Shown here piece after piece: positions 2,323-50,874 of a stretch of DNA of 64,000 nucleotides. Where the stretch lies: NCBI GenBank assembly GCA_964445105.1, contig CAYUJS010000002.1:18123-82122 (forward strand). The letters run 5' to 3'. Every line of letters starts with the position of its first letter. The stretch's first letter is position 1. This DNA is from an uncultured bacterium (GTDB taxonomy: Bacteria > Chlamydiota > Chlamydiia > Chlamydiales > JAJFMA01). A program made the translations under genes and the position numbers. The notes beneath the pieces were generated by a model. It was given only the letters and a program-made list of their open reading frames with translations, was not told the DNA's origin and ran no database searches.

Positions 2323-3028
2323 ACCTAGCTGCGATGCTGCTTCAGGGATCCTATTTGTCGACAAAGCGGCTGGGCGCACTTCCTTCAGCCTAGTGAATCA
2401 GTTGCGGCATCGCTTAGGGGTTAAGACGATCGGTCACAGCGGCACGCTTGACCCCATGGCCACAGGTGTAATGATCTTGCTGATTGGGCGTCAATTTACG
2501 CGCCTCTCCGACCAGTTCCTTACTCAAGATAAAGAATATAGAGCCACTATCCGATTGGGCGTTGAAACAGAGACATACGACGGAGAAGGCGCGCCGACCG
2601 CTTACAGCGATCTTGTGCCCTCGGCGGAGACGCTGACTGAGGTACTGACGCACTTCCAAGGCAGCGTACAACAGATCCCCCCCATGTACTCAGCTAAAAA
2701 ACAGCAGGGCAAAAAGCTTTATGAGCTTGCGCGCAAGGGCATCACGGTGGAGCGACCACCCGTTACCGTCACCTTGCACACCTCTCTGCTGCGCTACGAG
2801 TACCCTGAATTAGAGCTAACCGTAGCGTGCTCCAAAGGCACCTACATCCGTACCATGGCTCACGATATTGGGCAGCAGCTGGGCTGCGGAGCCCACTTGT
2901 CGGCTTTAGCGCGCACACGCTCGGGCAAGATATCCATCGATGAGTGCATCCATTCTGATTTAATTCAGGACGCAGAGTTCAACCTCCACGAAACCATCCG
3001 CAGCCATACCCGTAAGCTAACTAGTTAA
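2267..3028 (+). CDS. truB: tRNA pseudouridine(55) synthase
   Basis: The track ORF opens at 2102, but TruB similarity starts after ATG 2267 (MKSKID...GILFVDKAAGRTSF). The catalytic-Asp motif HSGTLDPMATG is present. The gene overlaps the rbfA 3' end. Confidence 0.9.
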   Translation: MKSKIDTPNQSDANLKPNKPSCDAASGILFVDKAAGRTSFSLVNQLRHRLGVKTIGHSGTLDPMATGVMILLIGRQFTRLSDQFLTQDKEYRATIRLGVETETYDGEGAPTAYSDLVPSAETLTEVLTHFQGSVQQIPPMYSAKKQQGKKLYELARKGITVERPPVTVTLHTSLLRYEYPELELTVACSKGTYIRTMAHDIGQQLGCGAHLSALARTRSGKISIDECIHSDLIQDAEFNLHETIRSHTRKLTS

Positions 3029-4084
3029 AGCTGGTAAGTACTCCCAATCGAATCCAAACGCTGCGGGCCCCACAAGCTCCAAACCTTGCGGGGTCGTCCA
3101 GACGCTGGGAGCGGGTAAAGCAACTACCGATACCCTTAAGCCATATTGCAGCCGCTCGACAGCTACCGGCAGGCCTGTCTCGTGCTCAAAAGCGACAATA
3201 AGATCCGGCGTAGTGACCAAAGGTCGTGGCTGCCCTTCTTTAAAAACAGCTAAAAATTCATTTTGGAAATAGATAACGGTCTGGCTATCGCCGCCCGCCA
3301 CAATCGCACGACCATTTTGAAAGGAAGATTCAACCCAGTGCTCGACATCTATGATGTTTCCAGACGCGACAATACGGCCTCCACAGGCCTCCAAGACAGC
3401 TTCGACGGGATCTTGCTTTCTTTGCTGGGCGCTAAGGATGCTGTTACCCAACCGCAGAGCGTAAGAAAGCGTGCCCACCAGTACGACTTGTGCCGCCACT
3501 GGCTGAGGCATTGGGTGGCTACAAACAGCTGCGTCAGAGCCCATGGCCGTCGTAAGACCCCTGAGAAGGCGCTCCATCTCCTCACCGGAGACGGCACGAA
3601 CGATACCCACGGCATTGCTTGCTGTGTCAACCACAATTGCCGGACCTGGCTTTAGTTGATGCAGTTCAGGTGTACACATATTACAACAGGGGAAAGCCCG
3701 CCCCATCAGGTCCCCGTCTACTACAGGTAGCCCCAAAGCGGCTGCTGCGTAAACGGCCGGCAAGGCGTTCGATCCTCCGATTTCCGCCGGCAAGAGCCCG
3801 CCTACTTTACAAGGAATGACCTGTTCCAGATGTTTCACGATCAGAGAAAACTCATTCCCCGAATGCAATCTTTCGAGACAGACAAGAGGCGCGCCCATAA
3901 AAAACACCGGCAGTACCCAGGTGTCTGAGGGGATTTCTTCGATGGGAACTAAAGCCACTGGGCCATATTGCTGCAGCTCCTCGCGAGCCAACAGCAAATC
4001 ATACGCTGTGTCTCCACCACCGCCAGAACCAAGTACCGCAGCCCCTAAAGCAAGCGCTTCGAGATCATTTAATGTTATTTGCAT
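3017..4084 (-). CDS. DUF917-family protein, paralogue a (partner of a HyuA-like protein)
   Basis: 355 aa with the N-terminal glycine-rich motif LGAAVLGSGGGGD and an overall pattern I recognise as DUF917. Its ATG lies 3 nt after the stop of the upstream HyuA-like gene. It is a clear paralogue of 5632-6753. Confidence 0.75.
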   Translation of the reverse strand: MQITLNDLEALALGAAVLGSGGGGDTAYDLLLAREELQQYGPVALVPIEEIPSDTWVLPVFFMGAPLVCLERLHSGNEFSLIVKHLEQVIPCKVGGLLPAEIGGSNALPAVYAAAALGLPVVDGDLMGRAFPCCNMCTPELHQLKPGPAIVVDTASNAVGIVRAVSGEEMERLLRGLTTAMGSDAAVCSHPMPQPVAAQVVLVGTLSYALRLGNSILSAQQRKQDPVEAVLEACGGRIVASGNIIDVEHWVESSFQNGRAIVAGGDSQTVIYFQNEFLAVFKEGQPRPLVTTPDLIVAFEHETGLPVAVERLQYGLRVSVVALPAPSVWTTPQGLELVGPAAFGFDWEYLPALTS

Positions 4085-4087
4085 TTG

Positions 4088-5650
4088 CTACCAGCGCCTC
4101 CCCGACGCACCAACGACTAATTTTGTAAGATGGTTAGCAGAATAGGGAATAGGCAGCACCTCCACGTAGGTGATGCGCACACTACTGGGACTAGCACCTT
4201 GCTGGATCGCTTTATCAATAGCTTCCTGGCGCAATAAATCCAAGGCTTGCTGCCTTTCTGCCTGATTCACAACGCGGGTGCCAGTCGCACCAATCTCGGC
4301 CAGCGCAGCACCATACGCATTGGCTACCGAAGAAAAAGGCGCGAGCGAAAGACTCGTGGTGAACTCTTCCTGCAGCACGCGGCTCAATACTTCGGCGGCT
4401 CCGCCCACTAGTACGACGGAAGAGTCCTTCATCCCACGAGAAAGTTTTTGTATCTCCCAAGCTGCCTGGGTGCCTATGGAGCGCAGGATAGCACTCGCTT
4501 CAGATTGGCCAATTTTCACAAGCGAGGTTAGCCCTTCTGTGATCTCCATGTCGCCTAAGACGCACGCTAGATCGGTGAGTGTCAATTGTGGTCCACCAAA
4601 TACCTGCGAGAGTTCTGGCAAGCGCGAACCACAGCTAGCGGGACCGACCACCCAGTCCCCCTGCGATCCTTTATCAATATGTGTGCCCCCACCGATCGCT
4701 ATGGAACAGCTATCGGGCATGGCAAAGTTTAACGCCACACCCCCGACGGTAGTGGCTCGCAGCGAGCGGCGCACTAACCCATCTCGCACTACTCCTATAT
4801 CGGTGGAGGTACCTCCAACATCCACTACGATGGCGTTTTCAGTGGTAGCTAATTTTGAACCGCCTACGAAGGAGTTGGTGGGGCCGGCAGCGACAGTTTT
4901 TAGCGGATATCTCCCGGCCTCATCAACAGATAGCAGGGTACCGTCATTTTGGGTCATCCACACCTCTGCAGTCAACCCACAGGAATGCACCAACGAAGCG
5001 AGTCCCTTAAAGCTATGTCCAAGAAAGGGGATGAGCGCAGAGTTCAAAATAGCTGCTTTTTCCCGCTCCAATAAACCCATACCACCTATGGAAGAGGAGA
5101 GTGTATAAGGGAATTCGGGACCTAACAACTTTTCAATAAACTCGCCCACTGCCTGCTCTTGCTCTGGATAGATAGGGCTAAAAGACCCTACGATCGCCAG
5201 CGTTTGGGCGCCCATACTGAGTAGTTCATCCACCGCGCGCGCTGCTTCTCTGAGACTGAAGGGGCTCATCGGCCGACCGTCACATTCGAATCCTCCACCA
5301 ATGGCCCTACAGCTCACCACCACAGCTGCGCGCAAAGCTATGGGCCAATCGCAGGCGGATAAAGGTTTTGGCGATCGACACCCACACATGCGGATCACCC
5401 CGACTGTCGCCAGACGATTGCCCTCTAAAACAGCATTGGCTACTTGCGTAGTCCCAATGTGCACATGGTCAATCTCGGTAAATTCAGTGGGGTAGCGAGT
5501 GCGTAAAACGGCTAGACCCTGCGTAATTCCCATTTCGATGGGGGCCGTGGAATACGTTTTATAAGATCCGATCAATTTGCCGGATCCGTCCACGATAGCA
5601 AAGTCTGTGTTGGTGCCACCAACATCGATACCTAAACTGAGCTTCGACAT
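4088..5650 (-). CDS. hydantoinase/oxoprolinase-family protein (HyuA-like, ASKHA-fold ATPase), paralogue a
   Basis: Phosphate-binding motifs LGIDVGGTNTDFAIVD and VVDVGGTSTDIG are present. The start is taken at ATG 5650 (MSKLSLGIDVGG) rather than the track start 5731, by alignment with paralogue 8225-9778. Confidence 0.8.
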   Translation of the reverse strand: MSKLSLGIDVGGTNTDFAIVDGSGKLIGSYKTYSTAPIEMGITQGLAVLRTRYPTEFTEIDHVHIGTTQVANAVLEGNRLATVGVIRMCGCRSPKPLSACDWPIALRAAVVVSCRAIGGGFECDGRPMSPFSLREAARAVDELLSMGAQTLAIVGSFSPIYPEQEQAVGEFIEKLLGPEFPYTLSSSIGGMGLLEREKAAILNSALIPFLGHSFKGLASLVHSCGLTAEVWMTQNDGTLLSVDEAGRYPLKTVAAGPTNSFVGGSKLATTENAIVVDVGGTSTDIGVVRDGLVRRSLRATTVGGVALNFAMPDSCSIAIGGGTHIDKGSQGDWVVGPASCGSRLPELSQVFGGPQLTLTDLACVLGDMEITEGLTSLVKIGQSEASAILRSIGTQAAWEIQKLSRGMKDSSVVLVGGAAEVLSRVLQEEFTTSLSLAPFSSVANAYGAALAEIGATGTRVVNQAERQQALDLLRQEAIDKAIQQGASPSSVRITYVEVLPIPYSANHLTKLVVGASGRRW

Positions 5651-6753
5651 ACGCCCACCGCCTGTTGATAATCCCAAGAAAAACCGAAGGCCTTCGGACC
5701 AACGAGCTCTAAACCTTTCTCTGTCTTCCAAACGTCAGGCGCGGGCAAAGCGAGCACCTGAACCCTAAGGCCGTACCTTAAGCGCTCTACAGCGAGCGGC
5801 AGACCTGTTTCTGACTCAACTATGACAATGATATCTGGCGTACAAGCTAGCGGCAGGGAGCCGTCCTGCGGAATCACAGCCAAAAATTCATTTTGGAAGC
5901 ATACACTGAATTGCGTACCTTCTGCCACCACAACCGCCCGCCCATGCTGAAAAGCCGATTCGATCCAGTACTCCACGTCGCTGATATAGCCGGAGGCGAC
6001 CAAAGAACCGCCAAAAGTGGCTAAGACAGCTTCCGCTACATCTAGACCGCCTCCCAATGCCGTTTGCCAGCAGCGGCCTATCGCCAACGCGTGAGAAACT
6101 GAGCCGCGCAAGGCTGTTTTTTTGGCAACGGCCCCAGACATAGGGTGTGAGCAAACAGCCGCATCGGACCCCATCGCCGTCGTTAGAGTACGCAAAAGCC
6201 TTTCCATCTCGCTCGATGTTTCCGATTCCAAGATAACCGACGCGCCCGTGGCTGTAGCAACGATGACCCCAGGACCGGGTTTAAGACGATGTAAACCGCA
6301 GGTAGACATGTGACAAAAAGGGAAAGCCCGGCCCATGGTATCGCCATCGATCACTGGCAGCCCCAGCGCGCCAGCTGTATAGAACGGCGGCATGGCGTTA
6401 GACCCCCCTATTTCAGCGGACATCAGACCGACCACAGGAGCCCCGATTCTCTTCTGTAGTTCGTTCACAATAATGTGAAACTCCTCCCCAGAGTGAAGCT
6501 TCTCTAACAGTACCATAGGCGCGCCCATCCAGTAGATAGGCAGGATCCAGCCCTCATCAGGGATATCCTCCACGTCCATTAAACGCACGGGCCCATGCTG
6601 TCGCATATGCTCTTTTGCAACGAGCAGATCGTATCCCGGATCCCCACCGCCTCCGGAGCCTAGCACCTGGGCACCCAGAGCTAGTGTATCCATGTCATCT
6701 AGCGTAATCCAGACGTCTTTCACGATAAGCTCCAATAAATTCAAGACATGCAC
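5632..6753 (-). CDS. DUF917-family protein, paralogue b
   Basis: LGAQVLGSGGGGDPGYDLL aligns with paralogue a along its full length. The true start is uncertain: ATG 6753 overlaps the permease by 59 nt, and an in-frame GTG near 6714 fits the paralogue alignment better. The 3' end overlaps the HyuA-like start by 19 nt. Confidence 0.75.
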   Translation of the reverse strand: MHVLNLLELIVKDVWITLDDMDTLALGAQVLGSGGGGDPGYDLLVAKEHMRQHGPVRLMDVEDIPDEGWILPIYWMGAPMVLLEKLHSGEEFHIIVNELQKRIGAPVVGLMSAEIGGSNAMPPFYTAGALGLPVIDGDTMGRAFPFCHMSTCGLHRLKPGPGVIVATATGASVILESETSSEMERLLRTLTTAMGSDAAVCSHPMSGAVAKKTALRGSVSHALAIGRCWQTALGGGLDVAEAVLATFGGSLVASGYISDVEYWIESAFQHGRAVVVAEGTQFSVCFQNEFLAVIPQDGSLPLACTPDIIVIVESETGLPLAVERLRYGLRVQVLALPAPDVWKTEKGLELVGPKAFGFSWDYQQAVGVCRSSV

Positions 6754-7927
6754 GCGTTACCGCGTAAACCACCCAAGAAGCGATAAAAGCCTCTAGTACA
6801 GGTACACCGCCCCAGTTTGCCAAGCCAGCTAAATAGGAAGCCGCTAAAGCAATAGCGGCGCTAGCGGGAATATAAGCCCGTCGCAAGTTAGGCTTCCACG
6901 AAATCAAGACATATTCGCAGTAGATGATAGCTCCTACGCCAGCTACTAAAATTCCTAGGGTTGTCAGAACAGATTCAAGCCGATCCAGTAAGGGAATGCC
7001 GCACAACGCCGTCGCAAACAGCGCTGAGATCGCCCAGGCCTGCCTTTCAGTCAACTTGGGGAAGCAAACTCTAAGAGACGTTTGCGCACTGAAAAGGTTC
7101 ATGTGGTTGACCGCCCAGATCTGAAAAACTAGATAAAAACTTAGCAGGGCCATCCAAAAAGAGCCAGGTAGATTTGAGAAGGCAACGAGTAAGCTCGTGG
7201 CAGGATAGCACCAATAGCTCAGGGCGCCCACTGCTTCCACCAGCGAGAACACAACCAGAATAGTGATCCAGTTCGTCGTAACTGCATCCGTGCGCGTTTT
7301 AGAGAAACGCAGAAAAGTCGGCAAGTCGATGGTGTAGGCGATATTAAGCGCTAGAACCTGGGAAAGAGAAAATGCGCTCCAGCTCCAGTTGATGGCCTCC
7401 CCTGCTTGGGCCGACCCTTGCCAGCAGAGGCGTACCACAAGAACAGCCAATGCGGCGATAAGGATCGGCGTGGTTTTCTCTGCCCAACGCGCAATTCCTT
7501 CGATGCCCCAGTAGTTAGCCATCACCATGGCGACAGCTAAGCCAGCAGCGATAACCTGCACGCCCGGGCCCCATTGCCAGCCACCGAGTAGTAGAACCTG
7601 CTGGGCAACATACTGCAGCTGGATCGCAAACCAGCCTAGCGCGGTGGCAGCCATCACTAAACTAAACATCTGCTTCCCTAAAGTGCCCACAAGCCTTTCC
7701 GATTGCTGCGTGGTAGGAACGCGATGCTTCACGCTAATGCTGGCAGCCAAATGCCCCAAGCAAAAAAGCAAAAAATTACCTAATACAATAGCGATGAGTG
7801 CAGCTCCCACACCGTACGCTTGCGCCGCTTCATAAGCGACAGATAATATAGGCAAGCATAGCGCCGAGCCAACCTGAAGCCAAGTTAAGCGGCGCCATCC
7901 CATCAACTGAATTTGATCTGCATTCAT
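6695..7927 (-). CDS. NCS1-family (CodB-like nucleobase/hydantoin-type) permease
   Basis: 410 aa and about 12 hydrophobic segments. The segments AIVLGNFLLFCLGHLAASISVKHRVPT...ALGWFAIQ and DLPTFLRFSKTRTDAV align by eye with the equivalent E. coli CodB regions as I recall them. Confidence 0.7.
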   Translation of the reverse strand: MNADQIQLMGWRRLTWLQVGSALCLPILSVAYEAAQAYGVGAALIAIVLGNFLLFCLGHLAASISVKHRVPTTQQSERLVGTLGKQMFSLVMAATALGWFAIQLQYVAQQVLLLGGWQWGPGVQVIAAGLAVAMVMANYWGIEGIARWAEKTTPILIAALAVLVVRLCWQGSAQAGEAINWSWSAFSLSQVLALNIAYTIDLPTFLRFSKTRTDAVTTNWITILVVFSLVEAVGALSYWCYPATSLLVAFSNLPGSFWMALLSFYLVFQIWAVNHMNLFSAQTSLRVCFPKLTERQAWAISALFATALCGIPLLDRLESVLTTLGILVAGVGAIIYCEYVLISWKPNLRRAYIPASAAIALAASYLAGLANWGGVPVLEAFIASWVVYAVTRACLEFIGAYRERRLDYAR

Positions 7928-8001
7928 TCTTGCTCCTTATCGGTTTGGAAGGACGGTATCGTACTTCCATAAGGTTTTTTTAAAGAAGGGCGAACTAAGT
8001 T

Positions 8002-8145
8002 CAGCAGCTCCTGCTAAAAAAAGGCTGACTCCGGGACGGCCATCAGCCTCATTTTGTTCCTCACCCGTAGTCGAGATTACGAATTTGTTGCAAACTAAGC
8101 CTGCTTTCAGTCCTCGCTGAGCCCATTTCTTTTTTTAGCGGGAAT
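8002..8145 (+). repeat. MITE/REP-like element, copy A
   Basis: The left end is CAGCAGCTCCTGCTAAAAAAAGG and the right end is CTTTTTTTAGCGGGAA. The core blocks AGCCTCATTTTGTTCCTCACCCGTAG, CGAATTT and CTAAGCCTGCTTTCAG are shared with the other copies. Confidence 0.75.
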
Positions 8146-8224
8146 AAGTTTAGCCAAAAAATGGCAATCAATCGCACAGTCCAAGCATAAAGCGCCCCGC
8201 CGGCAGCACGCGATCTTTTCCAAA

Positions 8225-9778
8225 TTACATCCACATTCTACCTCCAGAAGCACCTACAACCAATTTTGTTAAGTGATCTGCACTGTAAGGAATGGGGAGC
8301 ACCTCAATGCGCGTGACTCTAGTCTTATGCGGACACGCCCCCTGCTTGATCGCGCCAGCAACCGCCTCCTCTTGCATAGCTTGGAGCGCTACCTGCTTAT
8401 CAGCTAACTTAACCACGCGCACAGAAATAGCTCCTATTTCTGCTAAGGCAGCCCCGTAGGCGTTAGCTACAGCAGCAAAAGGGGCCGTGATGAGCTCTCG
8501 ATTGAACCGTTTCCGCATCACCTCATGCAGGATTGCTGTGCCGCCGCCCACCAAAATAACCGCACAATCTTTGCGGCCCCGAGCGAGTTTTTCGATTTCA
8601 TAAATGACTTTATCAGCGAGCGCCTGCAAGATCCTTTCCGCGTTTGCGCGGGAGGCAGTAACTCGGTCGACGCGCGCGCCAGATATATCTAACAGCCCTA
8701 GCAAACAGGCTAAGTCTGTCAATGTTTGCTGCTGACCCCCAAAAATTTGGGCGCTTTCTTTGAAACGATAGCCACAGCTCGCGCGGCCTACGGCGCCGTC
8801 CTCAACGATTGTGCCACCGCCAATAGCCAAAGAGCAGAGGTCGGGCATAGAAAAATTCAGCGCAATGCCGCCCAGGGTGGCCGCATGTAGCGATCTTCTT
8901 ACGAACCCTCCCTCCACTAAACCGATATCGGTAGATGTACCCCCCACATCGACCACCACCGCTTGCGAAGTAGTGGCAAGCTTGGATCCGCCAATGAAAG
9001 AATTTGTGGGCCCCGCTGCGACAGTTTTAAGGGGTAAGATACCTGCTTCTGCCACAGAAAGCAGCGTGCCGTCATTCTGGGTCATCCAAACCTCTGCTTG
9101 AATTCCGCATGCTTGGACGAGCGAGGCCAGGTTTTTGAAACTTTCCCCCAAAAGCGGGATGAGAGCAGAATTTAGGATCGCCGCATTTTCTCGCTCGAGC
9201 AGCCCCAGGCTGCCAATTGCATGGGACAATGTATAGGGAAAGCGAGGACCTAGTAGCTTCTCGATACGAGCTCCCACTTCAAGCTCCTGCGACGGGTAAA
9301 GAGGACTAAAAGAACCCACCACAGCCAAAGCCTGAGCTCCTTGGCATAAAAGTGCCTTAATGGCCTCTTCGGTCTCATTAATTGAGAAAAGGCTCATGGG
9401 CCTACCATCGCACTCGAAGCCACCCCCAATAGCGCAAAAACCGTTCACTACTGCCGCGCGTATCGGAGCAGGCCAATTACTTGTCGGAAGCGGCTTCGGG
9501 GCGCGACAGCCACATAGACGAATGATGCCCACGCGCGCTAACCTCGTGCCCTCTAGTACCGCGTTGGTGGCCTGAGTAGTGCCTATATTTACATGTTGGA
9601 TCAGGCAATACTCATTGGGGTACTTTTCCTTGAGCTGTGCTAATCCCCTTGCCAGACCCTCTTCGATTGGCTGTGAGGTGGGCGTTTTTATGTAACCCAG
9701 AAGCATACCATGACAATCGACGATGGCAAAGTCGGTGTTTGTCCCTCCAACATCAATGCCTAAAGTAAGCGTTTTCAC
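8225..9778 (-). CDS. hydantoinase/oxoprolinase-family protein (HyuA-like), paralogue b
   Basis: 517 aa, MKTLTLGIDVGGTNTDFAIVD ... VVDVGGTSTDIG. It is collinear with 4088-5650, and more than half of positions are identical by eye. Confidence 0.8.
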   Translation of the reverse strand: MKTLTLGIDVGGTNTDFAIVDCHGMLLGYIKTPTSQPIEEGLARGLAQLKEKYPNEYCLIQHVNIGTTQATNAVLEGTRLARVGIIRLCGCRAPKPLPTSNWPAPIRAAVVNGFCAIGGGFECDGRPMSLFSINETEEAIKALLCQGAQALAVVGSFSPLYPSQELEVGARIEKLLGPRFPYTLSHAIGSLGLLERENAAILNSALIPLLGESFKNLASLVQACGIQAEVWMTQNDGTLLSVAEAGILPLKTVAAGPTNSFIGGSKLATTSQAVVVDVGGTSTDIGLVEGGFVRRSLHAATLGGIALNFSMPDLCSLAIGGGTIVEDGAVGRASCGYRFKESAQIFGGQQQTLTDLACLLGLLDISGARVDRVTASRANAERILQALADKVIYEIEKLARGRKDCAVILVGGGTAILHEVMRKRFNRELITAPFAAVANAYGAALAEIGAISVRVVKLADKQVALQAMQEEAVAGAIKQGACPHKTRVTRIEVLPIPYSADHLTKLVVGASGGRMWM

Positions 9779-17008: not shown

Positions 17009-17065
17009 GAACCTCTTGACTAAATGCACTTTGGCAGGAAAAATGCGCAAAAACCCAGGCAGCCC

Positions 17066-17962
17066 ATGCGCGCACTTTCCCTCATAACTCTTGTCATTTT
17101 GTCTGCTATCACTCCTGCACAGGCGGTTCCCACTGCATCCAAAGAAATTGGCAGAGACCACTGCCCTAGAGCAATCGCTAAGATCCTGCTAGATATTCAA
17201 GATCAGCTTTTTTACCAAGCTTGGGTTGCGTCTAAAAAAACCTCATTAGGCGACGATTTTGAGCCTGAAAAATACCTGCTAGGCCAGCTCAGCCAAATCG
17301 ATAACATGGTGGCCTGCGAAAGTATAGGCTTTGCGATCCAGCGCAGCATTTATGAACACCCAGATGCCGACGAACAAACCATTGTCGCCAACACAAGTCT
17401 AGAAGATGCGATCGCCTACCAGCTGATGCGCATTGTTTCCACAGACATTTACGGAGAAACCGCCTTAACCCACGCCGCCGCTTCTCAAGAAGGAAAAGGC
17501 TTTGAAACAACCGGTGAGCTGCTGAGAAAAATCCTCAGCAGCTTCCAGGCCGCGGTAGACCAGCGATTGGGAAAAGCGAAGTTAGTCTACAAGGACGCCC
17601 AGATTCACGATTTAGAAGCCCCAGGCCTGCGCGCAGGCTACGAGAAAATACTGCATAGGCTAAAGCAAATCATCGCCCGCGACGGGATCGTCACCGTCTA
17701 TTTCAATTTCATCAGCCCGGCAGACCCACAAAAACTAGGCACAGTACGCCACAGTATTTTCGCTGAGTTTCAGGCCGCCCATTTCTACCTATTCGACATG
17801 AATGCGCCCAAATGGGTGGTCACCTGGGGCAATGGAGACGGAAGCTACCCAGATGCTGAATCATTGCTAAGAAACGCCCTAGACTATATAGGTGCGGCCT
17901 ACCTACAGCCTAACGTCGGTAATAGGCAGACCGCGTTGCAGCTGGCCATATATTCGAATTAG
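17066..17962 (+). CDS. hypothetical secreted protein (possible papain/YopT-like Cys-His-Asp fold)
   Basis: The start is taken at ATG 17066, which gives the signal peptide MRALSLITLVILSAITPAQA|VP. The candidate triad is VACESIGF ... VRHSIFAEF ... FYLFDMNAPKW. The functional call is speculative. Confidence 0.6.
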   Translation: MRALSLITLVILSAITPAQAVPTASKEIGRDHCPRAIAKILLDIQDQLFYQAWVASKKTSLGDDFEPEKYLLGQLSQIDNMVACESIGFAIQRSIYEHPDADEQTIVANTSLEDAIAYQLMRIVSTDIYGETALTHAAASQEGKGFETTGELLRKILSSFQAAVDQRLGKAKLVYKDAQIHDLEAPGLRAGYEKILHRLKQIIARDGIVTVYFNFISPADPQKLGTVRHSIFAEFQAAHFYLFDMNAPKWVVTWGNGDGSYPDAESLLRNALDYIGAAYLQPNVGNRQTALQLAIYSN

Positions 17963-17967
17963 GAGGC

Positions 17968-18351
17968 TTAATGCCTCGCCCCGCCTTTGCGCAACTCACG
18001 ATAGCCTTCCCAATAGTAGCAGTGTTTTTTGGCCCAGTTGCGATACACCTTACGTAAGCACGGGCTAGGACTGCAACACGCACAGTGCAGACAGTGGCTA
18101 GTCCCGCAGTGTGCGCACTCGTGGTAGGAATAGGCGCACTTGTGGCAGTAGTTCTCGTTACACTGCTGCTGAAAACAGGTTTGACCGGTGCAAACGCAAT
18201 CGTTACAATAAAAAACACTACAGAGCAGACGCACCGGTCCTACGGGCACAGCTTCAACGCATGTCTCTGCACCAGCCACCGAGGTTGAGCTCAGACAAAC
18301 CGTTGCTAGAAAAGCGGCTAAAACGATAATGTATTTAGTCAGCGACACCAC
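17968..18351 (-). CDS. small Cys/His-rich secreted protein
   Basis: 127 aa with the signal-like N-terminus MVSLTKYIIVLAAFLATVCLSSTSVAGA. About 17 Cys and many His follow in roughly 100 residues (CNDCVCTGQTCFQQQCNENYCHKCAYSYHECAHCGTSHCLHCACC). Confidence 0.6.
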   Translation of the reverse strand: MVSLTKYIIVLAAFLATVCLSSTSVAGAETCVEAVPVGPVRLLCSVFYCNDCVCTGQTCFQQQCNENYCHKCAYSYHECAHCGTSHCLHCACCSPSPCLRKVYRNWAKKHCYYWEGYRELRKGGARH

Positions 18352-18422
18352 TCAAATCCATGTTATAAATTTCTATGTAGCCAAACCTCGCCACTAGGTC
18401 AATATAAAAAAAGAACAAAAGG

Positions 18423-18944
18423 ATGGCCTCTATGACGCGCCCAGGTAAAACAGTCGCCGAAACAGCTGTAACCGATCATACCTACAAGGTATTTCCCAAC
18501 GACCTAAACTCTCACGGAACTGTTTTTGGAGGCATGGTCATGTCCCAGGCAGACCGCGTTGCTAACGTCGTTGCTGAACGGCACAGCGAGCGACTTTGTG
18601 TCACGGCTTCTGTCGATTCGATGCATTTTCTCGCGCCCGCGCGCAGAGGCGAAACGCTCGTCTTCATGGCCTGCGTGAACCGCGCTTGGCGTAGCTCGAT
18701 GGAGGTCGGTGTTAAGGTCGTTTCAGAAAACTACCGCACAGGTAACCGCGCGCACATACTTAGCGCCTACTTCACCTTCGTGGCCGTAGACGATGAGCAC
18801 CAGCCGTGCGATTGCGCCCCCGTCATCCCCCAATCTCCTATTGAAAAACGCCGTTTCGAAGAGGCTGGCGAACGCCGCAGGCAACGTCAAGAAGAAGCCG
18901 CGCAGCGCCGGGCCCGCCGCCAGCAGGAACCTCTTCAGTCGTAA
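18423..18944 (+). CDS. acyl-CoA thioesterase (hotdog fold, YciA/BFIT-like)
   Basis: VFPNDLNSHGTVFGGMVMSQADRVA is typical of this family. The protein has a C-terminal Arg/Gln/Glu-rich tail. Confidence 0.8.
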   Translation: MASMTRPGKTVAETAVTDHTYKVFPNDLNSHGTVFGGMVMSQADRVANVVAERHSERLCVTASVDSMHFLAPARRGETLVFMACVNRAWRSSMEVGVKVVSENYRTGNRAHILSAYFTFVAVDDEHQPCDCAPVIPQSPIEKRRFEEAGERRRQRQEEAAQRRARRQQEPLQS

Positions 18945-21561: not shown

Positions 21562-22044
21562 TCAGTAAGATGATCTTAACTGTGCGATTATTTCTGATGA
21601 AAGATTGGTGGCGCGAGCAACCACCTCCGAGCTCAAACCTTCAAGAATCAGTTTTTTTGCTATTGCGATTTTTTCTTCTTCCCAACCCTTTTTATGGCCT
21701 TCTTCTAAGCCTACTAGTCGCGCGTGCTTGAGGCACTCTTTTTCAACGGAGATTTTGTCAGTCATGTCATCGTAAGCCATCAGCTGTTCGGCGGACCACT
21801 TACAGCAATCTGGTTCTGCATACGCCCTATCGATAACGTTGTCATTACCGATAGTCAGTTCCAAACCCTCCGCTTCCGTTTGCCCAGCGTTTTTGAAAAA
21901 ATAGGCCCATTTATCGACCATGGAGGCCAGTTGCTCTTTAGTTTTATTCAATTTAGAAAGCTCTAAAAATGAGAAAGAAAAATCTTTTAGACACCGCACA
22001 TGTACTTTTTCCTGTAAGAGGTAGTGGTGAGAGGGGGTGCTCTT
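21562..22044 (-). pseudogene. truncated Rpn/YhgA-like PD-(D/E)XK nuclease-transposase family gene (C-terminal half only)
   Basis: FSFLELSKL...VDKWAYFFKNA and the tail GLEEGHKKGWEEEKIAIAKKLILEGLSSEVVARATNLSSEIIAQL match the C-terminal half of this family as I remember it. The nuclease N-terminal half is absent, and the frame is closed by TAA at 22045-22047. Confidence 0.55.
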
Positions 22045-30458: not shown

Positions 30459-30812
30459 AATTTCTTCAATAACAAGTTTATCTGAAAAGGAGGCGAATTC
30501 ATCGGTTAGCCTCAGCCTTATAATAGCATAAGGGCTATAAAATAGAATCTTTCTTTATGCTTATAGCGCATTGAAATGCACATAAAATATGCCATATTTA
30601 CATATATTTTTGTCTGATCGGCGGAAACTTCCGCTGCTTTTTTAGAAGACCTGAGGGATGGCTTGCCTAGCAAATCCAACGCGGTCGGCAAACCTACTGG
30701 CGGGCCTAATTTTTAAACGAACAAACAGCAAACGCCCCAGCTAGTCCCACGCGCTAGAGTTAGGTATAAAAAGGTGGACATTTTAGCTTTCTTTCGGTGT
30801 ATAATCTCCCGT

Positions 30813-33800
30813 ATGACACAGCAACAAAACATTATTCTGAAAAAAGTGAGAGTGCATAACCTCAAGTCGGTTGATCTTGAGTTAGAGCCCAATCAACTGA
30901 TCGTATTCACCGGTGTGTCGGGATCCGGAAAATCATCCCTGGCGTTCGATACTCTTTATGTCGAGGGCCAGCGACGCTATGTGGAATCCTTGTCGACCTT
31001 TGCCCGTCGCCAGATGGGCGACATGTCGCGTCCCGAGCTAGAACATGCCGAAGGCATCTCTCCCACAATTTCCATCGAACAGAAAACAGCCGGCCGCAAC
31101 CCACGCTCCACTGTGGGAACCCTCACCGAGATTTACGACTACCTCCGTGTTCTTTACGCACGTGTGGCCACGCCGCACTGTCCTGTTAGCGGCGAGCCCG
31201 TCTCTCCTCAAAGCCGCGAGAGGATCATCCGCGAAGTGCAAAGTCTCCCCAACGGCACTAAACTGACCATTCTCGCTCCGTACGCCCGCGGTAAAAAAGC
31301 CGAATTTAAAGAAGACTTTCAAGAACTTCTGCGCAAAGGATTTGTCCGAGCGCGCGTGGACGGACAGATCATTTCCTTATCCGAAGGCATCGCCCTGGAC
31401 GGTAGCGTCTCGCACGATGTAGATGTGGTCATTGACCGTATTGCCCTGCAAAAGGCCAATCATTCGCGCATAGCAGAAGCACTCACACAGGCGTTAGAAC
31501 TAGGAAATGGCTTATGCAGTATCTTAGAGACCGATGCAAGCAATGAACGCCTCTTTTCCATGCACGCCCATTCGCCTAAATCAGGCCTCTCTTACGGCGC
31601 CTTGGAGCCACACGATTTCTCTTTCAATAGCCCCGCAGGCATGTGCTCGCGCTGTAACGGTATGGGACACGTTCAAGAATTCGATCTCGACAAGATCATC
31701 GACCCAAACCTCAGCATTGCAGAAAACTGTTGTAGCGTGGGTAGCGGTTATGAAACTGTCTACTACGGAAACGTCTACGATAATCTCGCTCGCCTCTACA
31801 AATTCAGCGTCGACACACCCTGGAAAAAGCTTTCCAGTACTGCCCAACGCGTTTTTCTGTACGGAATCGGGACCAAAGCTGTGCGCATGCAATTTGCCAG
31901 CAAAACGAAAGATACAATTTGGCATGACTATGTCCACTGGAATGGCGTTTTGGCAGAGGCACACGCCAGATATCGCGATGCTAAAAGCGATAGCTATCGC
32001 AACCGTGTAGAGCAGCTCATGAGCGAACAGACCTGCCCCGACTGCGCAGGTAAGCGGTTGAAACCCTATCCGGCCGCCGCGCGCCTGGCTGGCAAAGGCA
32101 TCAGTGAGCTTACGGCCCTCACCGTCGCCGAATGTGCTGCCTTCTTCGAACGTCTGCAACTACCCGGGCAAGAGCAGATCATCGCCGAGGAGCTACTCAA
32201 AGAGATTAGCCAGAGGCTGCGCTTCCTACTGGATGTCGGTCTCCATTATCTCACGCTCGACCGCACCGCGCCCACCCTCTCAGGTGGCGAGGCGCAGCGT
32301 GTGAGACTAGCCTCTCAGATAGGCTGTGGATTAGTTGGTATCACTTATATTCTCGACGAGCCGTCTATCGGCCTCCATCCACGAGATAACGCAAAACTCA
32401 TTCTCACGCTCAAGGCTCTGCGCGACAAAGGAAATACGGTCATTGTCGTCGAACACGATGCCGAAACCATGTGGGAAGCTGACCACGTCGTCGATTTCGG
32501 ACCCGGTGCCGGCGTAAAGGGAGGCCACATTCTGTGCAGCGGCAAGCTCAAAGACCTCGTCGCCAATAAAAAATCGCTAACCGCCGACTATCTCACCGGC
32601 AGGAAAGAGATCGCCGTTCCCAAAAAACGTCGCTCCGGTAGCGGTGAGAAGCTAACAATCCGCGAAGCCAGCCACCACAACCTAAAAAACATTGACGTAC
32701 AAATCCCTCTGGGGATGCTAATAGCTGTCACCGGCGTCTCCGGCTCAGGCAAATCAAGCCTTATCTCAGAGACACTCTACCCTGCACTTTGCAATCAGCT
32801 CCAAGGTGGCGAACTTACCATCGGTAAATGCAAAAGTATTGAAGGCATCGACCAGATCGACAAGATTATCGCCATCGACCAAACCCCGATCGGGCGCAAT
32901 CCGCGTTCCAATCCTGCCACCTACATCAAGCTATTCGACGACATCCGCGATTTATTCACAGAGCTGCCTGAGAGCCGGGCGCGGGGATATAAGCCTGGCC
33001 GCTTTAGCTTTAACGTCAAAGAAGGCACCTGCTCACGCTGTCTCGGGCTGGGCATGGTCAAAATTGATATGGACTTTCTTGAAGCAGCCTGGATCGACTG
33101 CCCGGCGTGCAACGGCCGACGCTTTGATCATGAAACTCTATCCGTGCTTTACAGAGGGAAAAATATCTATGACGTCCTTGAGATGGATGTCGCAGAGGCG
33201 CTAGAGTTTTTCGAGAACATCCCCTATATCCGGCATAAATTGGAAACGCTAGAGCGCGTGGGCATGGAGTACATAAAGCTGGGACAATCTTCCACCACGC
33301 TTTCTGGCGGTGAAGCCCAACGTATTAAGCTGGCTAAGGAGCTCGTGCGCCCAGCGACCGGTAAAACGATGTACATCCTCGATGAACCGACGACTGGCCT
33401 CCATTTCCACGACATCAATCAGCTACTGGGGGTCCTCCACGCTTTTGTCGAAAGAGGCAATACTGTACTCGTCATCGAACACAACATGGACGTGGTCAAA
33501 ACAGCCGATTGGGTGATCGACCTAGGTCCGGAAGGGGGCGCTGGCGGGGGACGTATCGTCGCTTGTGGTAATCCAGAGCAAATTGCCCGCATGAACACGC
33601 CTACAGGTACAGCAATCAAAGAGATCTTAGAGCATGATCCGCAAAGAAAAGTAGTAGAAGTCCTTAACCAACCGCCAAGACTCAGAGCAGCGCAGTGCGA
33701 TTGCACCCACATCGTGATTCGAGGCGCAGAACAGAACAACCTCCAGCATCTCGACCTCGAAATCCCCCGCAACAAACTAACCGTTTGCACTGGGCCCTCT

Positions 33801-36530
33801 GGCTCGGGGAAAACTAGTCTGGCCTTTGATACGGTCTATGCAGAAGGACAACGGCGTTACATTGAATCGCTCTCCCCTTACGCACGCCAGTTCGTCAAGC
33901 AGATGCCTAAGCCAAAAGTAAGCCAAATAGAGGGTCTTTCTCCCGCCATCGCCATTGAGCAGAAAACCCATGCGGGAAATCCACGTAGTACTGTGGGTAC
34001 AATGACCGAAGTTTACGACTACCTCCGGCTTCTCTTCGCTCGTCTTGGCGTGGCGCACTGCCCCGAAACAGGTGAAGTCATCAAAGCCATCAGCAAAGAG
34101 CATATCGTAGATCGCGCCCTGGCTCTTCCCAAAGGTGAAAAACTTCACTTCCTAGCGGCGCTCGAAGTGCGCAAAAATGAGTCTTTTACCGATGTCATCC
34201 AACGCTACCAGCGTCAAGGATTTCTGCGCATACGCCTCAACGGCCAATTCTACGACATCGACCAGCAAGAGCTGCCGTTCGATCGTAGAAAAAAGAACGA
34301 ACTCTTCCTTGTGGTTGACCGCCTCAAAGTGGAAGATGCCGCCAAAATGCGTCTTCTAGAAGCAGTGGAAAACGCTTCACACATCGGTGGCGGTAAACTA
34401 ACTATCCAACGCGAAAAAGGTCCCGATCTCTTCTTTAACCTCACTTTCGCTGTCGAAAGCACTGGCAGATCCTATCCCGAAATCACGCCTCATACCTTCT
34501 CTTTTAATACGCCAGAGGGGATGTGTTCTGATTGCGAAGGGCTCGGATTTCAATATGGAGCCAACCTTAGCCACAATCTAACCATCATGCATTGTTCCGT
34601 CAACGAACTTCTGCATTTGCTCTGCAAACAACGCCTCACCGGCCCCGCATTTGACTTCGCACGCGCTATTTTCAATCAGGAAGGCATACATCTCTATCTG
34701 CCCCTAAAAATGATCCCCGCGCAGCACCTTAACTTCGTACTGAACGGCTCACCAACGGGAAAATGGTATACCTTAGGCAACGGCCTTAAACTCCAGTGGC
34801 AAGGCATCAACCAAGTGCTAGCCAAAGTGGCTAAAAGCGCCAAAAAAGAGCTCAAAGAGCAGGTCATTCCAATGCTCGATGAGCATGAGTGTCCGATCTG
34901 CCATGGGTCACGCCTCAATGCCTTAGCACGTGCAGTCACCATTAACGGTGCCAGCCTAGCTGATGTGTGCCAATGGCCTCTGGAACGCTCTCTGGAGTTT
35001 ATCTCTCAGATTCCTATACCACCGGCCGAAGGCAAGGTTCTGCAAGAAGTCAAACAACAGCTACTCAATCGACTAGGTTTCTTGGACGAAGTGGGGCTCT
35101 CTTACTTAGCTCTAAACCGTCGTGCACCTACCTTGAGCGGGGGCGAATCACAACGCATCCGGCTCGCCCGGCAGCTCGGTAGCGGCCTGACAGGGGTATT
35201 ATACGTGCTCGACGAACCGACAATTGGTCTTCACCCACGCGATAACCACCGCCTCAACCAAGCGTTAAGCCGTCTACAGAAACTCGGCAACACGCTTCTC
35301 ATGGTTGAGCATGACCCCATGACCGTCCAGACCGCCGATTATCTCCTTGATTTTGGGCCCCAATCGGGCAGGCACGGCGGCCATATCACTGCGAGAGGTA
35401 CGCTCAAGCAGGTACAACTAAACGAGAACTCGTTAACCGGTGCCTATCTGTCAGGTAGACGAGCCATCTCCTGCCCCGCCAAACGCCGCGCACCTACCAA
35501 GGCAAAAATCACCGTGCAAAACGCCTGTAAGCACAATCTAAAAGCCCTTAACGTGCAAATTCCCCTCAGTTTAATGGTCGCCTTTACAGGTGTCTCTGGC
35601 TCAGGGAAATCTACGTTGCTGCACCAAGTCCTCTTACCAGCTTGCGAGCGCCACGTGGGCCAGGCAGGTCCCATTACCATTGAAGGCGCTAAAATAACTG
35701 GCCTACAGCACGTCACGAAGGTGGTGGCTGTCGACCAGAATCCAATTGGGCGCACAAGCCGCTCCGACATAGCCACCTACACGGATGTGCTGACACCGCT
35801 ACGCAATCTGTTTGCCTTGCTACCGGCAGCCAAAATCAAAGGCCTGCAGGCCAAACACTTCAGCTATAACCACCGCAAAGGCATGTGCAGCGCTTGCTGG
35901 GGGCTGGGCTACCGCAGGGTAGAGATGCATTTTCTACCCGACGTAAGGGTGGTATGCCACGAATGCCACGGCCTGCGCCTCAATCCCCTTAGCCTGGAAG
36001 TCTGCTATCAGGAAAAAAACCTAGGGCAATGGCTGGAATGCACCGTAGAGGAGCTAGCGGTGCACTTCGCCCACCACCGCGCACTCAAGCGTCTGCTGGA
36101 TACGCTCATCTCGGTAGGGCTCGGCTATCTTAAGTTAAATCAAGAGATGGTTAGCTTGTCCGGTGGAGAAGCTCAGCGCATCAAACTCAGCCGGGATCTG
36201 GCAAAACGCTCCGCGGGTCCAACCCTGTACCTGCTGGACGAGCCCAGCACAGGTTTACACAGCGAAGATATCCAAAAACTTCTACTCGTCTTGCACCGCT
36301 TAGTCGACCAAGGACACTCCGTCATCTACATCGAGCACCAGGCCGACATGATTCTCAATGCCGACCACGTCATCGACCTGGGACCCGATGCAGGGGACAA
36401 GGGTGGGGAAATCGTCTTCCAAGGCACGCCAGAGGAGCTAGTAAAATGCAAAGAGTCCCTCACAGGAAAATTTCTGACGCACGCAGCAGCGGCTCCTGCT
36501 AAAAAAAGAGGCCGTGCCAGCGAGGGCTGA
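30813..36530 (+). CDS. uvrA: excinuclease ABC subunit A, tandemly duplicated (two complete UvrA modules in one polypeptide)
   Basis: The start is taken at ATG 30813 ([20 protein letters not shown]). Module 1 runs to about nt 33650 and module 2 starts about 33708 ([19 protein letters not shown]). Each module has two Walker A boxes (GVSGSGKSS x2; GPSGSGKTS and GVSGSGKST), two LSGGE(A/S)QR signatures, two (I/V/L)LDEP(S/T) Walker B boxes and Cys-rich zinc modules. Confidence 0.97.
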
Positions 36531-50725: not shown

Positions 50726-50788
50726 TCTATGGATTTAATCTTGACCTCTTTTTCGCTCATCAGCTATAAGGGCCTCTTTAACAACTAG

Positions 50789-50860
50789 GGTGGCATAGCC
50801 AAGTGGTAAGGCAGAAGCCTGCAAAGCTTCCATTCCCCAGTTCAAATCTGGGTGCCACCT
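50789..50860 (+). tRNA. tRNA-Cys (anticodon GCA)
   Basis: A manual cloverleaf fits. The acceptor is GGTGGCA/TGCCACC, the D stem GCC/GGC and the anticodon stem GAAGC/GCTTC with loop CTGCAAA. The T stem is CCCAG/CTGGG with loop TTCAAAT. The discriminator is T, consistent with Cys identity, and CCA is not encoded. Confidence 0.85.
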
Positions 50861-50874
50861 AGCTTTTTTCCTGC

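Follow-up and report, generated by a model that had tools for sequence, protein, structure and literature searches.

A short open reading frame (ORF) on the reverse strand of a 64-kb stretch of DNA from an uncultured bacterium (the whole of which is referred to here as the window) is a genuine gene that is under strong purifying selection and that encodes a small Cys-rich protein with a predicted export leader. Judged by their sequences, this protein and its relatives are a new family within a known chlamydial kind, that of the exported Cys-rich envelope candidates, and the family has so far been found in a few uncultured lineages. The explanation that we favor, tentatively and with somewhat more doubt than belief, is an OmcA-like one in which the protein acts in the periplasm or at the outer membrane as a disulfide cross-linking protein of the envelope. 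The positions of the gene, its parts and the related features are collected in Table 1.

Table 1. Features of the Cys-rich gene, its surroundings and the related loci (positions without a prefix are those of the window)
Feature	Position	Strand	Remarks
Cys-rich exported protein, coding sequence	17968..18348	(-)	126 aa from the second GTG (18348); placed by five-locus alignment and SD spacing
Alternative first GTG	18351	(-)	127 aa; ORF then 17968..18351
Stop codon TAA	17968..17970	(-)	
Signal peptide	18268..18351	(-)	M(V)SLTK, hydrophobic YIIVLAAFLATVCL, SSTSVAGA; predicted SPase I site AGA/E; by inspection
Cys-rich core (ETC...CACCS)	18070..18267	(-)	15 Cys in ∼66 residues; CxxC, CxC and CC motifs
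Basic, aromatic C-terminal tail	17971..18069	(-)	PSPCLRKVYRNWAKKHCYYWEGYRELRKGGARH; near-invariant in five loci
Promoter-like/leader region	18356..18410	(-)	conserved in alignment of 77 nt upstream of the start, five loci
T-tract and -35-like element	TTGACC at 18397..18402	(-)	TATTGACC, invariant in five loci
-10-like element TACATA	18374..18379	(-)	follows a 17-nt spacer
Conserved ATAAC	18362..18366	(-)	
SD-like GGAT	18356..18359	(-)	imperfect in L008
Overlapping shadow ORF	17910..18218	(-)	
Overlapping shadow ORF	17892..18068	(+)	
Overlapping shadow ORF	18085..18288	(+)	
Overlapping shadow ORF	18111..18329	(+)	
Convergent neighbor, exported protein	17066..17962	(+)	298 aa, no assigned family; ORF 17024..17962, start probably 17066
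Double-length UvrA	30774..36530	(+)	1918 aa; chlamydial hallmark
MurC-Ddl fusion	37336..39726	(-)	chlamydial hallmark
Family member ORF	L008:4009-4455	(-)	148 aa; located via convergent-neighbor search
Family member ORF	L010:1159-1575	(-)	138 aa; located via convergent-neighbor search
Wrong-frame public gene call	L008:3978-4364	(-)	128 aa; shadow on same strand as true gene
Wrong-frame public gene call	L010:1131-1430	(-)	99 aa; shadow on same strand as true gene
Locus in the window's organism without a gene call	L006:995-1454		
Collagen-like protein	L001:8820-9812	(+)	long G-x-T triplet repeats; inserted right after Cys-rich gene, on its strand
MOMP-like porin (PF05150)	L001:9828-10907	(+)	acidic, Cys-dense N-terminal segment CCIKMDDCDCCPQVCC; inserted downstream, on the Cys-rich gene's strand

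The coding frame was examined in the window and in four homologous loci. The Cys-rich frame contained no stop codon in any of the five, and each of the other five frames was interrupted by 1 to 13 stops per locus. All of the competing frames being broken in this way, the overlapping ORFs of the window are shadows, as the preliminary description had proposed, and the six-frame comparison detected no better gene on the opposite strand. The last 33 codons, which encode the C-terminal tail, had 6, 5 and 27 variable columns at codon positions 1, 2 and 3, respectively. Across the five loci, the amino acid identity of this tail region was 92% in the Cys-rich frame, at a nucleotide identity of 78%, but just 48% and 54% in the two alternative frames of the same strand; an antisense frame reached 81% and was broken by 10 to 13 stops. 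Over the full alignment, the differences were mostly at codon position 3, with saturated synonymous sites (pS of ∼0.77 to 0.80) and a pN of 0.12 to 0.31. The pN values were 0.04 to 0.07 for the tail and 0.13 to 0.38 for the remainder of the protein, including the Cys-rich core. Scans of the window for Rfam families and tRNAs found no RNA gene at the Cys-rich locus; the sole RNA gene of the window is a tRNA-Cys gene at 50788..50861.

It is scarcely conceivable that the Cys-rich frame is a compositional artefact and that one of the overlapping frames is the truly coding one. Such an artefact would agree with the public gene calls, which use another frame of the same strand in L008 and L010 and place nothing at the locus in the window's organism, and it was refuted by the stop counts and by the tail identities of the different frames over the five loci. 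Also speaking against it, the leader, a promoter-like element and the start codon were all conserved, as was the SD-like GGAT apart from an imperfect copy in L008. The stop-free shadow frames arise because TGY (Cys) codons read as RCA (Ala/Thr) on the opposite strand.

The 127-aa product of the window ORF contains 18 Cys (14.2%) and 7 His. After the predicted leader, 17 Cys are present in 99 residues of a mature protein of ∼11 kDa, a density that bears out the ∼17 Cys in ∼100 residues of the preliminary description, and the peptide quoted there was found verbatim in the ORF product. When the bases of the ORF were shuffled 20,000 times, 4.9 ± 2.1 in-frame Cys codons were obtained, with a maximum of 15, and the Cys background of the window was 1.55% (mean of 44 long ORFs). 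Both values fell well short of those of the gene and indicated a composition far from chance. The G+C content of the ORF was ordinary (52% versus 51% for the window). Two GTG codons could serve as the start, of which the second (18348) is probably the true one because its product begins with MSLTKYII, which aligns with the MSLRYII of the relatives, and because it stands at the GGA-N8 distance seen in the relatives.

The search for homologues that the preliminary description had proposed yielded four relatives (46 to 58% identity), all from uncultured Chlamydiae and all encoded at loci syntenic with that of the window gene. Two of these (P0001, 155 aa; P0002, 137 aa; 46 to 48% identity) came from 5.8 billion protein clusters that were searched with a word index, and P0001 is encoded in a MAG of an uncultured Chlamydiae bacterium. 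The genes of P0001 and P0002 are syntenic with the window gene: each is divergent from a gene for a 4HBT thioesterase and is followed by a convergent gene for an exported protein of ∼300 aa. The cydAB and ileS genes also lie near the P0001 locus. The other two members, in L008 and L010, came from a search with the convergent neighbor (Table 1). When 1.84 billion protein representatives were searched exhaustively with an HMMER profile, no real relative was detected beyond the family's own cluster; one candidate, P0003 (E of 3e-4), was a spurious repeat protein matched through an AYYNSTxKKSYIWDG repeat. A scan of genome contigs returned the MAG carrying P0001 as its sole match. Scans of JGI metagenome contigs with KKHCYYW and YRELRKGGARH found nothing, these patterns being ones that miss the variants KKHCFYW and GFRELRK. 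Variants of this type are carried by the JGI contig L010, which was reached through the neighbor gene only.

The genes of three of the five family members were missed or mis-framed by gene callers. The mis-framed products from L008 and L010 were rich in Ala, Val and Thr and senseless as proteins. The protein sets of NCBI, ENA and Logan contain the 128-aa L008 version and lack the true products of L008 and L010. Identical DNA of the window's organism was present in three other sequencing runs; two of the contigs contain the complete ORF, and no gene was called in either. Neither start variant of the window protein was found in a collection of 15 billion proteins (1.84 billion representatives). 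The callers skipped the gene in the window's organism and mis-framed two relatives because the Cys codons create long stop-free shadow frames, and in consequence of these errors three of the five members are missing from the ∼15-billion-protein collection.

Upstream of the gene, the sequence blocks TTTT.TATTGACC, TA..TAG and ATAAC were invariant in the five loci, and the -10 region followed the pattern TA[CT][AC]TAG. A scan with a consensus promoter did not call this element, the -10 sequence of which matches just three of six positions; it is a putative promoter. The element was kept in L008 even though an ABC transporter has replaced the thioesterase as the upstream neighbor there, and for this reason the Cys-rich gene seems to be transcribed as a unit of its own. 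A search downstream of it revealed no intrinsic terminator. The transporter (L008:4519-7620, reverse strand) lies directly upstream on the same strand as the Cys-rich gene and is made up of two proteins, a BPD_transp_1 permease (596 aa) and an ATPase with an AAA_assoc_C domain (433 aa). In the window, the 4HBT thioesterase gene (18423..18944, forward strand) has in-frame ATG codons at 18423 and 18432, both of which are used in public calls. As the thioesterase and Cys-rich genes start just 71 bp apart, the thioesterase promoter must overlap the Cys-rich gene or its promoter.

The protein is composed of an N-terminal leader, a Cys-rich core and a basic, aromatic tail. By inspection, a leader with n, h and c regions was present in all five members, so that the hydrophobic leader found convincing at the outset was recovered throughout the family: each combines a single basic residue with a hydrophobic run of ∼13 to 14 residues and small residues at positions -3 and -1 of the predicted cleavage site (AGA in the window protein; AFA, AFG, LSA and VCA in the relatives). 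A conserved VPxGP motif follows 6 to 9 residues past this site. The leader is thus predicted to be of the Sec/signal peptidase I export type. A Cys in the leader resembled a possible lipobox in three sequences. A lipoprotein reading was rejected on inspection, as this Cys is Asn in the L010 member and the residue at -1 to it is Val in the window copy (LATVC); in all five sequences, the signal peptidase I-type site lies farther downstream. Export of a cofactor-bearing protein through Tat was likewise rejected, no twin-arginine motif being present in any of the five leaders.

The core opens with VPxGP followed by a conserved YCDxY[IV]C. In the five-sequence alignment, 12 Cys were invariant in the whole protein, 10 of them in the core, and 3 of 7 His were invariant, one of them in the core. 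The length of the core varied through indels of Cys-bearing modules, and the window copy was the shortest: a 12-aa GCRRCGCECQYC block is missing from it, and a further QCGGCH[HR] repeat is peculiar to P0001. The mature proteins ranged from 99 to 132 aa with 17.2 to 23.5% Cys, corresponding to 17, 28, 24, 28 and 27 Cys in the five members, two of these numbers being odd. An AF2 model of the protein, made from a three-sequence alignment, was uninformative (pLDDT of 42.6).

The tail is the most constrained part of the protein, with the 33-residue consensus PSPCLRKVYRNWxKKHC[YF]YWEG[YF]RELRKGGARH. It has a pI of ∼10 and two Cys spaced 13 residues apart, and the hydrophobic moment of its first segment, CLRKVYRNWAK, taken as a helix, is strong at 0.82. 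No match to the heparin-binding consensus XBBXBX or XBBBXXBX was found in the tail.

Comparison with known families placed the protein in none of them. Searches of Pfam and NCBIfam returned nothing significant for the window protein, its mature form or the relatives; the Pfam thresholds were an E value of ≤1 for the full-length window protein and ≤10 for P0001, P0002 and the mature window protein, and the only Pfam match of the full-length protein at E ≤1 was DUF7549 (E = 0.16), far below the cutoff of that family. A profile search of PDB sequences with the family gave no matches at E ≤10. No match to OmcA (PF03503, Chlam_OMP3) was obtained at either Pfam threshold, and an hhalign comparison with an OmcA alignment made from 11 database sequences gave a probability of 3%, over 16 leader columns only. 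OmcB (PF03504, Chlam_OMP6) had no Pfam match either and is a protein of ∼550 aa compared to 126 aa here. The early impression that the protein is unlike both OmcA and OmcB was therefore upheld by the Pfam null result and the hhalign value. A multiheme c-type cytochrome was rejected, since the heme-binding motif CxxCH is not conserved: it is absent from the window protein and was found in P0001 alone, twice, as CGGCH within the insertion specific to that protein.

The likeness to OmcA is one of kind. Both are small chlamydial proteins with an N-terminal export leader and ∼15 to 20% Cys arranged in CC and CxxC motifs, the Cys number varies across species in both, and both can be expected by analogy to join in disulfide cross-linking of the envelope. 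They differ in that OmcA has a lipobox (LSSC/C), compared to a signal peptidase I-type site, recognized by inspection, in the new family; in the length of the mature protein (∼70 aa versus 99 to 132 aa); in the invariant basic, aromatic tail, which is found only in the new family; and in gene order, with OmcA encoded directly upstream of omcB in one operon and the Cys-rich gene flanked by the thioesterase and 298-aa protein genes. OmcB is likewise exported, chlamydial and Cys-rich but is ∼5 times larger, with repeated beta-rich domains. It carries a basic motif that is used in binding. Outside bacteria, the hair high-sulfur keratin-associated proteins, which we take to resemble the family in their CC-x-P-S-x-C motifs (CCRPSPC here), provide a compositional lead only; these are variable Cys-rich matrix proteins with intermolecular disulfide cross-linking, and they are eukaryotic and unrelated.

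The disulfide-linked complex is regarded as the structural element of the chlamydial envelope (PMC2811131), lineage-specific Cys-rich envelope proteins are the rule in the phylum (PMC6490308, PMC2811131), and in Chlamydia the periplasm contains Dsb oxidases and disulfides are managed by Dsb enzymes (PMC6752827). Under the OmcA-like explanation, the Cys-rich protein would be exported through Sec, cut by signal peptidase I and released into the chlamydial periplasm, where its 17 to 28 core thiols would form intermolecular disulfides with other Cys-rich envelope proteins. The partners might be MOMP-like porins and OmcB-type proteins, and the cross-linking would be timed to differentiation into the resistant stage, so that the protein would help to build the cross-linked complex of the outer membrane, as OmcA does in the Chlamydiaceae. 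The invariant tail is probably a docking module that would substitute for the lipid anchor of OmcA; as to what it may dock to, our guesses are the anionic surface on the inner side of the outer membrane, LOS or a partner protein that is itself conserved. The localization, the cross-linking and the role of the tail are all inferred. Several points stand against this explanation: no similarity to OmcA or OmcB was found at the level of sequences or profiles; the gene is not beside omcB, and the window has no OmcB or MOMP-like gene; the AF2 model gives no information; porin and collagen-like neighbors are confined to one of the five loci; and the CxxC, CxC and CC motifs would suit thiolate metal binding equally well.

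This last point leads to an alternative that we consider unlikely, namely that the protein is a periplasmic thiolate metal-binding protein, a metallothionein-like buffer or chaperone in which Zn, Cu, Cd or Ni would be bound up by clusters of reduced Cys together with some His and in which the tail would tether the protein or pass the metal to a partner. The dense Cys motifs include stretches of a metallothionein-like appearance, CCQCQCGDNCPSC in the L010 member and QCGGCHHQCGGCHRQC in P0001, and the high Cys fraction, the CxC, CxxC and CC motifs, the variable Cys number and the modular indels are all shared with metallothioneins such as bacterial SmtA/BmtA (PF02069) and yeast CUP1. The window copy has four HC dipeptides (AHC, SHC, LHC and KHC), as expected from the preliminary description, in which Cys was said to be frequently preceded by His; in the four relatives, only SHC and KHC of these are kept. 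This pattern is mostly private to the window copy, and with a single invariant His in the core and numerous aromatic residues, the metallothionein-like protein that the pattern had been thought to suit became the weaker alternative. Aromatic residues are few or absent in classical metallothioneins but numbered 12 in all three of the mature proteins examined, and the family differs further in having a Sec leader and a long basic tail without such Cys clusters. No metallothionein family of Pfam, PF02069 included, was matched at E ≤10 (P0001, P0002 and the mature window protein) or E ≤1 (the full-length protein). No metal transporter or regulator was consistently adjacent to the gene, the ABC transporter upstream in L008 being an insertion unique to that locus, and no paper on a periplasmic metallothionein of chlamydiae was found in the literature. 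Sec export would also place the protein where, in Chlamydia, Dsb oxidases are present (PMC6752827).

The OmcA-like explanation was favored over metal binding because 12 Cys but only 3 His are invariant, because aromatic residues are numerous and constant in number and because the protein appears to be Sec exported in a phylum that has both lineage-specific Cys-rich envelope proteins and periplasmic Dsb enzymes. One fixed fold held by intramolecular disulfides was disfavored because the Cys number is variable, sometimes odd and altered by indels of Cys modules. Such variation fits intermolecular cross-linking, yet it fits metal clusters as well.

The surroundings of the gene confirmed the chlamydial origin assumed at first. 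In addition to the MurC-Ddl fusion and the 1918-aa UvrA, the window contains a CT021-family protein gene by lepB and ileS, cydAB and a mur/ftsW cluster, and the CT021 family, the fusion and the UvrA, together with the location of the closest relative in an uncultured Chlamydiae MAG, substantiated that assignment. No OmcB or MOMP-like gene was present within the 64-kb window, and no PF03504 protein was detected in the window or in loci L001, L002, L008 and L010. In L001, a porin gene and a collagen-like gene have been inserted beside the Cys-rich gene, giving an envelope theme to that locus, one of the five. Elsewhere in the window, a cluster at 3017..9778 (reverse strand) contains two hydantoinase/oxoprolinase genes, two S-Me-THD-like genes and a cytosine/purine-type permease gene, a duplicated catabolic-looking module that is unusual in a chlamydial genome. 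A 145-aa ORF beside cydA (21562..21999, reverse strand) matches only the C-terminal part of the PD-(D/E)XK transposase family PF12784 and is a probable remnant of a mobile element.

In four of the loci, the convergent gene for the 298-aa exported protein is the immediate downstream neighbor of the Cys-rich gene; L001 is the exception, where it is three genes away. Its family comprises only six clusters among the 5.8 billion, and an alignment revealed a leader and invariant Cys98 (ACES), His243 (RHSI) and Asp258 (LFDMNAP) residues, which we would guess to be a Cys-His-Asp catalytic triad. The AF2 model was of moderate quality (pLDDT of 69), and a Foldseek search of it against the PDB gave no significant fold match (best E of 0.026, TM of ≤0.22); weak hints of a papain-like fold came from phytochelatin synthase and Lpg2622 (E of 0.1 to 0.5, TM of ∼0.15 to 0.2). 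Any functional link between this protein and the Cys-rich one is speculative, and because of their convergent orientation the two genes are not co-transcribed.

This linkage bears on another alternative, which we rate as decidedly unlikely: that the protein is a secreted or surface factor for interaction with the host (an adhesin, a toxin-like protein or a mini-protein inhibitor stabilized by disulfides, with the tail as a binding epitope) or that it serves the exported protein encoded next to it as a substrate or inhibitor. The tightness of the convergent linkage and the three invariant residues of the neighbor would suit such a role, as would the extreme conservation of the tail at the amino acid relative to the nucleotide level and its amphipathic, cationic character. 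The variable and odd Cys counts, however, speak against the defined fold of a knotted mini-protein, no strict XBBXBX site is present in the tail, the neighbor has no significant structural match to any protease, and it is not co-transcribed with the Cys-rich gene. A bolder version of the OmcA-like explanation joins the two genes and is, in our estimation, a long shot: they may form a hitherto unrecognized envelope module of a deep chlamydial lineage in which the pair would replace OmcA, with the Cys-rich protein as a thiol-rich glue that is docked by its tail without a lipid anchor and with the neighbor processing, cross-linking or loading this glue.

The rigidity of the chlamydial infectious-stage envelope depends on disulfide cross-linked Cys-rich proteins, and those outside the Chlamydiaceae are poorly known and vary between lineages. 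The family described here is a concrete new candidate for such a cross-linker in an uncultured lineage, and its invariant C-terminal module can be tested for docking or binding. If the tail does bind LOS or lipid A, it would represent a new kind of motif for anchoring proteins to the outer membrane. Furthermore, surveys of chlamydial envelope proteins that are based on predicted proteomes will overlook genes of this type, and protein databases under-count the family.
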